Below, piece by piece: positions 2,873 through 4,222 of a stretch of 9,839 bases of DNA. A program made the translations under genes and the position numbers. Positions within the stretch are counted from its first letter, which is position 1. Every line of letters starts with the position of its first letter. The stretch covers positions 1-9,839 of IMG/VR virus record IMGVR_UViG_2531839531_000010; one strand, written 5' to 3'. Origin of the DNA: a virus (Duplodnaviria; Heunggongvirae; Uroviricota; Caudoviricetes). The notes under the pieces are model-generated. The model did not search any database. It saw only the letters and a list, made by a program, of their open reading frames with translations, and was not told where the DNA came from.

Positions 2873-2963
2873 ATCACAGTTTTATGATAAAACTTTTACC
2901 TTGGTTTGGAGTGCTGTAGAGAGATATTTTAGGGGGACGAGTAATTTTCTAAGCTGGAGCATA

Positions 2964-2993
2964 TTGACATATATTATTTCGGATTTGCAAAAT
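2964..2993 (+). promoter_or_regulatory. Candidate sigma70-type promoter for the AT-rich cargo gene
   Basis: A perfect -35 hexamer TTGACA (2964-2969), an 18-nt spacer, then CAAAAT (2988-2993), a 4/6 match to TATAAT, about 30 nt upstream of the start codon. Hexamer matching by eye in AT-rich DNA is weak evidence. Confidence 0.3.
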
Positions 2994-3021
2994 ACAGATT
3001 GTAACCATGGAGGAGACAAGC

Positions 3022-4182
3022 ATGGAAAATTTTGCAAATAAGTTAAAAATACACACAGAGCATGTTGCAAAAATGGGGGTGTTTTGTACAACTGAAGAAA
3101 CGACAAAACAAGCACTCATTATGCCATTACTAGATATTCTTGGTTTTACTCCGTATGATCCAAGAAAAGTCAAAGCTGAGTATAGTGCTGACTTCCCCGG
3201 GGTTAAGGCTAATGAACGGGTTGATTACGCTTTATTTTGTCATGATGTTCCTGTGATGTTCATTGAGGCGAAATCGTTTTCAGAACAAATTGATAATCAC
3301 TGCCCACAGCTATCAAGATATTTTAATTCAACACCGGAAGTTACTATATCAGCCATTACAAATGGTGTTGAATGGCGTTTTTTTACGGATTTGAAACAAA
3401 AAAACATAATGGATTCAACGCCGTTTTTAAAATTAAGAATGGATTCTCTAACTCACTCCGATATTACACAATTATTTCGTTTTCGTTATGATAAATTCAA
3501 ACCAGAGGCTTTACGGACACTGGCTGAAGAAAGTGTTTATTTGAATTCATTTACTAAAACAATCAGTTCTAGTCTTCGTGAAGTTGATCTGGAGTTTGTT
3601 CGATATGTTGCTAGTCGTTCAAATATTGAGAGGCAACTTAATCAGAGATTTCTTGAGTTCGTGACTCCATTAGTTAAACAGGCCGTTGAGCGCGCTGTTA
3701 GCGCAATGGTGGTTTCCGGGCTATCTACACAACCGGTAGAGCAAACTAAAGAAAATGATGCAACGGATACACAAGTTAATAACGCCATTGTTGATGAAGA
3801 AAACCCCAACATAATAACCACAGCCAAAGAATTGGAGCTATTTGAAAGGGTAAAACAAATCATACAAACAGAAGATAATATAGAATATAAAGATACTGAG
3901 TCATATTTCGGTGTACTATTGAATGGTAAAACTAATAGATGGCTGTTAAGATTTTATGATAAAAAATCTTCATTTATAACTTTACCTATTTCGCTTAGTG
4001 AAGTTCAGTTGAATGAAATAAGACGAGCTCGACTTGATACGGATGGTAAAAGGATACATATAACTAATCCGGAAGATATACTTCGCATATCTGGTTTGAT
4101 TCTGGATTCATACGAGTATGTTAAAAATGATGATAATTTCCGCCGAGGGTCCAGAGTGAGCAGTTTAGAAGAGGTTGAATAA
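3022..4182 (+). CDS. PD-(D/E)xK nuclease-fold protein with an HsdR N-terminal-type domain and an unassigned C-terminal domain; candidate defence or exclusion moron
   Basis: Start set at ATG 3022 rather than track ATG 3007 because GGAGGAG (3009-3015) lies 6 nt upstream of 3022, while 3007 has no Shine-Dalgarno. The N-terminal ~120 aa (ALIMPLLDILGF...ERVDYALFCHDVPVMFIEAKSF...QLSRYF...ITNGVEWRFF) matches the pattern I know from the type I restriction HsdR N-terminal domain family. Putative catalytic D68 is at 3223-3225 and E82-A-K84 at 3265-3273. GC is about 28-38% against about 47-53% in the flanks. Confidence 0.8.
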   Translation: MENFANKLKIHTEHVAKMGVFCTTEETTKQALIMPLLDILGFTPYDPRKVKAEYSADFPGVKANERVDYALFCHDVPVMFIEAKSFSEQIDNHCPQLSRYFNSTPEVTISAITNGVEWRFFTDLKQKNIMDSTPFLKLRMDSLTHSDITQLFRFRYDKFKPEALRTLAEESVYLNSFTKTISSSLREVDLEFVRYVASRSNIERQLNQRFLEFVTPLVKQAVERAVSAMVVSGLSTQPVEQTKENDATDTQVNNAIVDEENPNIITTAKELELFERVKQIIQTEDNIEYKDTESYFGVLLNGKTNRWLLRFYDKKSSFITLPISLSEVQLNEIRRARLDTDGKRIHITNPEDILRISGLILDSYEYVKNDDNFRRGSRVSSLEEVE

Positions 4183-4184
4183 GT

Positions 4185-4210
4185 AAAAAACCCGCGAAAG
4201 CGGGTTTTTT
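4185..4210 (+). terminator. Rho-independent terminator of the cargo gene
   Basis: AAAAAA (4185-4190), stem CCCGC (4191-4195), GNRA tetraloop GAAA (4196-4199), stem GCGGG (4200-4204), TTTTTT (4205-4210). It starts 3 nt after the TAA stop. The flanking A- and T-tracts make it potentially bidirectional. Confidence 0.75.
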
Positions 4211-4222
4211 AATGGAGTAAAT

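Follow-up and report, generated by a model that had tools for sequence, protein, structure and literature searches.

The stretch analysed here, hereafter the window, is 9,839 nt of a Caudoviricetes virus (IMG/VR record IMGVR_UViG_2531839531_000010, positions 1 to 9,839) that carries baseplate and tail-fibre genes. Between two of the baseplate genes, one W-like and one J-like, lies an AT-rich segment of 1,350 nt with a nuclease gene and its candidate expression signals. A first-pass annotation made from the sequence alone had put the W-like stop at 2872 and the J-like start at 4223 and had treated the insert between them as a self-contained expression cassette with a TTGACA hexamer, a GGAGGAG motif and a hairpin followed by T6. 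These coordinates are all correct, and the three motifs are present as sequence features. The features of the segment and of its two flanks are as follows.

2525..2872, plus strand: W-like baseplate gene of 115 amino acids (aa), match to phrog_7986 (2e-64); left conserved flank of the slot
2873..4222: slot for variable cargo, 1,350 nt, 36% GC; homology to relatives is lost at the W stop and picked up again at the J ATG
2964..2993, plus strand: sigma-70-type promoter candidate, -35 TTGACA at 2964-2969, 18-nt spacer, -10 CAAAAT at 2988-2993
3009..3015, plus strand: Shine-Dalgarno GGAGGAG, 6 nt upstream of the ATG at 3022, read from the sequence
3022..4182, plus strand: cargo open reading frame (ORF) of 386 aa; HsdR-N/RecB-type PD-(D/E)xK nuclease domain at aa 1-160, helical linker, C-terminal alpha/beta domain at aa 256-375
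3223-3273: codons of the catalytic residues D68, E82 and K84
3307-3321: codons of the motif Q96-x3-Y100
4184..4211, plus strand: intrinsic-terminator-like hairpin, 5-bp G+C stem, GAAA loop, A6 at 4185-4190, T6 at 4205-4210; 2 nt past the cargo stop
4214..4217, plus strand: J ribosome-binding site GGAG, supplied by the cargo segment, 5 nt before the J ATG
4223..5449, plus strand: J/gp47-like baseplate gene, Pfam Baseplate_J (2.5e-7) and phrog_6 (1.8e-37); right conserved flank

A variable slot at the W-J junction

The slot stands out by composition and by homology at the same place. Its GC content is 36% as against 50% in the flanks, with a fall from ~0.50 to 0.32-0.40 over 2850-4200, and in alignments with Escherichia coli UMNF18 and the phage vB_Apl-pPE4 identity is lost within ~4 nt past the W stop and is back at the J ATG. 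A synthetic empty-site query, in which 303 nt of each flank were joined, was searched in 5,426 complete E. coli genomes. It matched 88 of them, always in two parts, with left pieces that stop at query positions 300-304 and right pieces that begin at 304-307, and joined W-J flanks were found in 0 of these 88 genomes with the tail module.

Empty junctions are found further away. W and J overlap by the 4 nt of ATGA in Kluyvera (L005); in three metagenomic contigs (L034-L036), whose W-like protein is 58-60% identical, the overlap is 4 nt or 1 nt. A search with the J protein of a contig collection holding one genome per species returned one locus, which proved to be an empty site. The expectation of the first-pass annotation that the two genes are normally adjacent is thus borne out by these cargo-less relatives. 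Slot length is 0 in the Kluyvera and metagenomic relatives and 515 to 3,184 nt in the others. Because W and J overlap in distant relatives, the borders of the insert can be given exactly, and the prophage comparison that the annotation had proposed places them at 2873-4222. The tight coupling that it had described elsewhere in the module is also there: genes overlap by 17 nt at 5433-5449 and by ATGA at 6056-6059, and are 2 nt apart at 7442-7443.

The nuclease cargo of the window is present in 25 of the 88 E. coli genomes, at 98.4-100% identity and in strains of diverse serotypes and sources. It is absent from the remaining 63, which have the tail module with antirepressor-type cargoes in the slot. 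The contents of the slot in relatives are:

UMNF18: antisense Ant antirepressor and an LprI-family gene
pPE4 and TUM1881: Ant and a 182-aa ORF
TUM9757: Ant and two small ORFs
E. coli W: truncated Ant and a 179-aa ORF
Rac-SA53: Ant and two ORFs
Salmonella relatives: 194-aa ORF, YafO-type toxin, Bro-N, ProQ and others, 1.7-3.2 kb
Citrobacter relative: a single antisense 163-aa ORF
Serratia relative: a single antisense 133-aa ORF

At least eight distinct cargo sets are seen across E. coli, Salmonella, Citrobacter and Serratia, all between conserved flanks. The alternative cargoes are without exception AT-richer than their own flanks, the sequence ahead of the J ATG comes with the cargo in each variant, and the commonest cargo is the Ant antirepressor, transcribed against the tail operon. 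The picture of an unusual, one-off insertion therefore has to be given up, since the slot is filled in 88/88 E. coli genomes and in three other genera. Judged by these comparisons, the W-J junction is a standing, lineage-wide variable slot with interchangeable cargo, and it is the slot and not the gene that is conserved; the relatives do not share a conserved gene of similar composition at this position. We found no description of the W-J slot in the literature searched.

Two short repeats lie at or within the borders. Exact copies of a 12-nt direct repeat, GTTTTTTAATGG, stand at 2830-2841 and 4204-4215 and bracket the slot; its left copy falls in the 3' end of the W-like gene, where UMNF18 and pPE4 read ...TTTTTTAACGG..., and its right copy covers the terminator T-run and the J ribosome-binding site. 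A perfect 11-nt inverted repeat (ATTTGCAAAAT at 2983-2993, ATTTTGCAAAT at 3029-3039) takes in the -10 hexamer and cargo codons 3-6. Neither of the two recurs in relatives, according to a repeat search for insertion scars. The direct repeat could be recombination microhomology or chance, and the inverted repeat is probably chance because its upstream arm is not conserved in three other copies of the cargo (L030, L012 and L009).

Some of the records that carry the tail module have questionable labels. The sequence PP818812.1 (L003), deposited as 'Actinobacillus phage vB_Apl-pPE4' with Actinobacillus pleuropneumoniae as the stated host, is 96-99% identical to E. coli Rac-like prophages in the tail module examined, and the host attribution is doubtful. 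Two assemblies of ~4.83 Mb named 'DH5alpha', NZ_CP026085.1 and NZ_CM135829.1 (our hits H129, H173 and H180), contain the full tail module, with the slot variant of E. coli W, LY180 and KO11FL. These labels are probably wrong, since the Rac prophage of K-12 is not known to carry these tail-module genes.

The cargo nuclease and its expression signals

The 386-aa cargo protein matches phrog_4225 ('prophage Lp2 protein 6'), a family placed by PHROG in the class 'DNA, RNA and nucleotide metabolism', over aa 6-375 of the longer ORF. An ATG at 3007 was considered as the cargo start and ruled out by the end-to-end match to phrog_4225, by the RefSeq start at 3022 and by the Shine-Dalgarno spacing. Pfam recognises the nuclease domain only (HSDR_N 5.6e-14, HSDR_N_2 2.4e-9). 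The residues D68, E82, K84, Q96 and Y100 are invariant in 52 homologues of 62-88% identity; by comparison with HsdR of EcoR124I, we take the first three to correspond to the PD-(D/E)xK triad and the last two to the QxxxY of the RecB family. In the AlphaFold model (mean predicted local distance difference test score, pLDDT, 70), the N-terminal domain is confident, the linker at aa 160-255 is poorly defined, and aa 256-375 form a second confident domain with a pLDDT of ~89. When this C-terminal domain alone was searched with HMMER against 1.84 billion representatives, 99 matches were obtained, the recognisable N-terminal domains of which are all HSDR_N, and no new domain architecture was found among those 99. 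A PDB sequence search with the cargo gave nothing meaningful. As modelled, the cargo is best described as a fusion in which an HsdR-N/RecB-type PD-(D/E)xK nuclease is followed by a double-wing-like C-terminal domain, similar to those of YdhG, YjbR and the MotA-CTD.

The RefSeq name of the protein is 'type I restriction endonuclease'. No helicase or translocase domain was matched by Pfam or NCBIfam in the 386 aa, where NCBIfam gave a sub-threshold HsdR fragment match only, and none is present in the AlphaFold model. Neither the window nor any of the eight further contexts examined has an hsdM or hsdS gene close by. This lack of a motor and of hsdM/S rules out a genuine type I HsdR, and the RefSeq name is misleading, and wrong as a functional statement, because the protein has no translocase motor and no hsdM/S genes nearby.

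The cargo family is large, with more than 1,300 clusters in a word-indexed search, and its members are carried by temperate phages whose hosts include Klebsiella, Clostridium, Enterococcus, Lacticaseibacillus, Porphyromonas, Streptococcus, Corynebacterium and Fusobacterium. The contexts of homologues that bear on its placement, with percent identity, are:

Citrobacter homologue, 71%: 22 nt downstream of a CI-type repressor with helix-turn-helix (HTH) and S24 domains, co-oriented
Klebsiella phage KpF5 homologue, 66%: directly after a 'Rac prophage repressor', co-oriented
Yersinia enterocolitica homologue, 75% (L032 3472-5164): 36 nt after an 83-aa Mnt-like gene, which is itself divergent from an Arc-like gene
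Shiga toxin 2 (Stx2) prophage homologue, 78%, and contig L030 homologue, 87%: just downstream of Q, antisense to late transcription
Salmonella homologue, 85%: among ORF6N, higBA and IS605 tnpB
another Salmonella phage homologue, 72%: adjoining antA
a further homologue, 79%: alone among ordinary chromosomal genes, with no phage genes around

The whole Yersinia unit resembles immI, with the nuclease behind mnt, and lies within a baseplate module (Sheath_initiator, Phage_Wedge1) that belongs to an unrelated myophage. In all, the cargo gene is found in at least six unrelated contexts and is not confined to one homologous target site. The gene recurs in positions where prophages put lysogeny-expressed genes.

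The promoter candidate at 2964..2993 is the top promoter-like site of the window, with 10/12 matches. Four cargo copies that lie in differing contexts (the window, L030, L012 and L009) have the pattern TTGAC[AG]-N16-18-[CGA]AAAAT at -58/-57 relative to their ATG. In these four the spacer sequence differs and none stands behind a repressor; they include the copies nearest to that of the window. The repressor-coupled copies are without the motif. Downstream hairpins vary from copy to copy. Since the motif is kept across contexts and the hairpins differ, the promoter appears to travel with the gene and the terminator appears to be acquired locally. The first-pass description of a self-contained moron cassette sitting exactly between the W-like and J-like genes thus stands, with a promoter motif that moves with its gene.

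The hairpin behind the cargo folds at -17.4 kcal/mol (z = -4.71; 0/200 shuffles fold as well) and was listed among the repeats of the window as inverted repeat I2; by sequence and folding it qualifies as an intrinsic terminator. It went undetected in a simple terminator scan, which probably took the A and T runs for part of the stem. Because it is flanked symmetrically by A6 and T6, the hairpin could act in both directions. In UMNF18, the plus-strand LprI cargo ends in a hairpin and T-run, AAAACCGCTTCGGCGGTTTTT, right before the J ATG (L002 10050-10134), with a loose similarity to the terminator of the window. A semi-conserved terminator module may be part of the right edge of the slot. An Rfam scan of the whole window gave no match.

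Probable read-through and the sister prophage

The position of the terminator had raised the concern that it would impose polarity on J and the genes behind it, so that the prophage either tolerates this or is defective. The T-run ends just 12 nt short of the J ATG, which rules out a separate J promoter downstream of the terminator, and because of this short distance J would need read-through in any phage with a plus-strand cargo. Internal terminators are found elsewhere in the same operon. The spacer between the V-like and W-like genes contains a hairpin of -27.8 kcal/mol (L001 19917-19950; z = -4.4) followed by TTTTTGTTT, and this V-W terminator is common to the prophage of E. coli strain 214-4, to UMNF18 and to the deposited phage genomes pPE4 and Rac-SA53. 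On this comparison, internal terminators are normal in the deposited phage genomes of the lineage. In lambdoid late operons, polymerase modified by the Q antiterminator reads through terminators. The 214-4 prophage encodes at the Q position a protein of phrog_753, 'anti-termination protein Q-like' (5.5e-79), co-directional with the lysis, head and tail genes. The polarity worry is weak, given the 12-nt gap between T-run and J and the stronger V-W terminator in deposited phage genomes, and it is probably unfounded. The choice between a tolerant and a defective prophage is probably a false one as well, in view of the intact 214-4 prophage with its Q-like protein and of the stronger terminator in two deposited phage genomes.

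The 214-4 prophage is full length and 99.95% identical to the window over 2363-9839. It lies at the Rac site, between ttcA/intR and uspF/ompN, and it contains an integrase, an excisionase, recET, kilR, repressor genes, replication genes, nin-type genes and the Q-like protein, together with tRNAs, holins and an endolysin, a terminase, head genes and a contractile-type tail module, with its late genes co-directional. From this near-identity the window appears to be part of a Rac-SA53-like lambdoid prophage of E. coli. The remaining features of the window, all of them outside the cassette, are:

1..2365, plus strand: IS66-family element (ISEc22-like); its left part lies beyond the window edge
7-396, plus strand: IS66 orfA, Pfam HTH_Tnp_1
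393-740, plus strand: IS66 TnpB, Pfam TnpB_IS66
790-2328, plus strand: IS66 transposase, Pfam DDE_Tnp_IS66 (1e-105)
2359-2365: IS66 right terminus ...CGCTTAC, read from the sequence
2380..2517, plus strand: small hydrophobic ORF of 45 aa (32 aa from the ATG at 2420); part of the lineage backbone and annotated in pPE4 and Rac-SA53
5433-6059: 208-aa (I-like) gene
6056-7441: tail fibre gene
7444-7989: tail-fibre assembly gene
8013-9839, plus strand: second tail-fibre gene (phage_tail_N), which runs off the window

The ORFs from the W-like gene to the second tail fibre are all intact in the window. The IS66 element, whose right end is 97% identical to ISEc22, is co-oriented with the tail operon. 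It sits in the 250-nt spacer that separates the V-like baseplate gene (237 aa) from the W-like gene (115 aa), and its right end lies ~160 nt upstream of the latter. The 214-4 prophage, otherwise 99.95% identical, does not have the element, and the junction between IS66 and phage sequence was found in 0 of the 5,426 complete E. coli genomes searched. If the prophage of the window is damaged, the IS66 insertion may be a better candidate for the cause than the cassette, and it may well have harmed the expression of the tail operon.

The V-W spacer is itself a variable part of the operon. In E. coli members of the lineage it is 250 nt long (L001 19876-20125), with the strong intrinsic terminator described above and the 45-aa ORF, and V and W abut in the Salmonella, Citrobacter and Serratia relatives. 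The spacer thus has the look of another insertion point of this operon, smaller than the W-J slot. DNA that carries no annotation in Stx phages and in some 770 E. coli records matches the window at 2400-2517 with ~85% identity.

The W-like label of the left flank deserves a separate comment. Pfam gave no match for the 115-aa protein, GPW_gp25 included, and its family, phrog_7986, has no assigned function in PHROG. The top PDB match found by Foldseek for its AlphaFold model (pLDDT 75) is gp25 of T4 (5iv5_BD), a weak match with E = 0.016, a probability of 0.91 and a template modelling (TM) score of ~0.36. The gene order, which runs hub, 237-aa baseplate protein, 115-aa protein, J, 208-aa protein and fibre, fits the position of W. 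Fold model and synteny together make a gp25/W-like sheath initiator a reasonable but not proven assignment.

Further observations concern loci away from the slot. GC dips to ~0.37 at 8400-8700 within the second tail-fibre gene, at the junction of a conserved N-terminal part and a C-terminal part where the PHROG alignments switch (~aa 130-150), which suggests that this fibre is a mosaic. Between hokD and the nin-type genes, the 214-4 prophage carries a divergent pair (L004 6059-7694) annotated as a 'beta family protein' of 365 aa and a 'sce7726 family protein' (NF033832, 1.6e-56), probably a further accessory or defence locus of the same prophage. The portal position directly behind the terminase large subunit (L001 5168-6604) is taken by a 478-aa gene with the RefSeq name 'anti-CBASS protein Acb1 family protein', which is odd at that place.

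A lysogen-expressed nuclease as the favoured reading

With moderate confidence, we read 2873-4222 as a moron-type accessory cassette in a lineage-specific slot, the product of which is a solitary, lysogen-expressed nuclease directed against incoming DNA. W and J are translationally coupled through their overlap in distant relatives, and in the Enterobacterales lineage their junction has become a slot that is always filled. In the lysogen the cargo would be transcribed from its own candidate promoter, and the hairpin would end the transcript so that J, the I-like gene and the tail-fibre genes stay silent. During lytic growth, polymerase modified by the Q-like protein would read through the terminator, and the tail operon would not be polar. 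Expression in the lysogen is argued from the homologues that stand directly behind CI-type or Mnt-type repressors. From its context and fold, the solitary nuclease would most likely attack incoming foreign DNA, in superinfection exclusion or defence; it would then be comparable to a restriction enzyme of type IV or of the stand-alone kind, and its C-terminal domain would serve in DNA or target recognition.

Several points weigh against this reading. On the side of expression, the -10 hexamer is weak (4/6 matches), and promoter-like sites are no commoner in the window than in shuffled sequence (11 found vs 13.0 expected), so that the hexamers alone are no proof of a promoter; the G+C stem of the terminator is just 5 bp. 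As to the phage, the Q-like protein is seen in the sister prophage 214-4 and not in the genome of the window itself, the IS66 element interrupts the operon upstream in the window, and the phage collection contained no phage genome with the nuclease cargo in the W-J slot. As to the protein, a PADLOC scan of the cargo matched no defence model, and the literature searched held incidental annotations only and no experimental work on this nuclease family. DefenseFinder has an entry, FS_HsdR_like, for a single-gene system derived from a phage-inducible chromosomal island (PICI), which we treat as a lead only.

Comparison with known systems helps to place both the slot and the gene. Morons are familiar from lambdoid phages as the concept of Hendrix and Juhala, with examples in the late operons of HK97 and HK022 and in lom and bor of lambda. 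The cassette of the window is like these in being an extra gene between genes that are adjacent in relatives, in having its own promoter and terminator signals (candidates here), in its deviant composition and in its place in a late operon open to read-through by antiterminated polymerase, but its slot is permanently occupied across the sampled lineage and takes interchangeable cargo on either strand. Morons are also treated by Cumby et al., as quoted in PMC9122126. Hotspots for antiviral genes have been described in prophages and satellites, next to the portal gene gpQ in P2 and between psu and int in P4 (Rousset et al. 2022, PMC9122126). There too, conserved core genes flank variable cargo that is exchanged between otherwise near-identical elements and has native promoters; the differences are that the phage is of another type, that the slot of the window lies inside a baseplate module and that its cargo has no PADLOC match. 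The immI region of P22 (mnt-arc-ant, with sieA nearby) is embedded among late and tail genes. The W-J slot resembles it in that Ant is the commonest cargo and runs against the tail operon, and in the Yersinia case the nuclease stands behind an Mnt-like gene with a divergent Arc-like gene in a baseplate module, whereas the slot of the window is without mnt, arc or ant and holds the nuclease cassette only.

For the position of the gene, the nearest parallels are rexAB of lambda and bstA of BTP1, defence genes that lie beside the prophage repressor. That bstA of Salmonella BTP1 is a defence gene has been reported (PMC8585504). The Citrobacter and Klebsiella homologues of the cargo, immediately downstream of a CI-type repressor and co-oriented with it, are placed in the same way, but there is no relation in sequence or fold, and the copy in the window has its own candidate promoter in place of a repressor transcript. 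For the protein, the likeness is to HsdR (EcoR124I; PDB 2w00, 3h1t), whose N-terminal PD-(D/E)xK nuclease domain is present in the cargo, and to the nuclease domains of the type IIG/IIL enzymes BpuSI and DrdV. Unlike these, the cargo has just 386 aa, no superfamily 2 (SF2) motor and no HsdM or HsdS, and its C-terminal domain is a different one (YdhG/YjbR/MotA-CTD type). Cassettes and slots of this kind are thus known, from lambdoid morons, hotspots of the P2/P4 type and regions of the P22 immI type; the slot and the nuclease are uncharacterised, and their interest is mainly that the one is a natural site of cargo exchange and the other a candidate anti-phage gene.

The nuclease might serve the phage's own lytic or lysogenic biology, in the degradation of host or competitor DNA after induction, in recombination or repair, or in counter-defence, with the promoter used early after infection or induction. 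This would suit the PHROG class of the family, the several copies that adjoin Ant, ORF6N or AntA antirepressor genes of the lysis-lysogeny switch, and the fact that no defence model matches the protein. However, the rexAB-like place behind maintenance repressors of the CI and Mnt types argues for expression in lysogeny, the gene is dispensable in most of the lineage (63/88 E. coli genomes are without it), and the stand-alone chromosomal copy has no phage genes around it. We consider such a role unlikely.

Still less probable is a homing-type selfish endonuclease, which would spread by cutting the W-J junctions of co-infecting relatives that are cargo-less or differently loaded and be copied in by repair, to its own benefit. 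PD-(D/E)xK homing endonucleases exist, and such an element could look like the one here: an AT-rich nuclease ORF that has expression signals of its own, fills the interval from the stop of one conserved essential gene to the start of the next and is bracketed by the 12-nt direct repeat GTTTTTTAATGG. Yet the same slot also houses cargoes that are not nucleases (Ant, LprI, the YafO toxin, ProQ and small ORFs), and the spread of the gene over at least six unrelated contexts, among them a non-phage chromosomal site and lysogeny-repressor operons, is a misfit with a site-specific target. The 25 E. coli copies and their flanks are also of uniformly high identity, which fits the vertical descent of a prophage variant.

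Least probable is a decaying remnant, the second alternative of the first-pass annotation, in which the cassette terminator and IS66 have inactivated the tail operon and the cargo is kept only for the benefit of the host: the IS66 element ~160 nt upstream of the W-like gene, its junction absent from the complete E. coli genomes searched, and the 12 nt between T-run and J ATG, with no room for a promoter, speak for it. Against it stand the intact ORFs that the window has from W through to the second tail fibre, the full-length prophage of 214-4 with an identical arrangement of the cassette, the 25 genomes in which this variant has been preserved at 98.4-100% identity, and the internal terminators that are normal in the deposited phage genomes of the lineage.

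We therefore keep to a moron-type cassette that encodes a lysogen-expressed nuclease. A broader claim can be put forward tentatively, and we hold it with less confidence than the reading of the cassette itself: the W-J junction could be an undescribed Enterobacterales hotspot for lysogen-expressed conflict genes, and the nuclease a new and widespread single-gene, methylase-free anti-phage restriction system, type IV-like or stand-alone in its action, of temperate phages in both Gram-negative and Gram-positive hosts. Should the nuclease prove to have no part in defence, what is left is an ordinary moron.

What had been a vague 'odd insertion' is now a precisely bounded, lineage-wide cargo slot in a baseplate operon, and a misleading database name has been corrected, in that the product is no type I restriction enzyme. 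Near-isogenic prophages that differ only in the content of the slot provide a natural set for the tolerance of internal terminators and of antisense cargo in late operons. The comparison also singles out an uncharacterised nuclease family, which temperate phages of many phyla place at classic lysogen-expressed positions.

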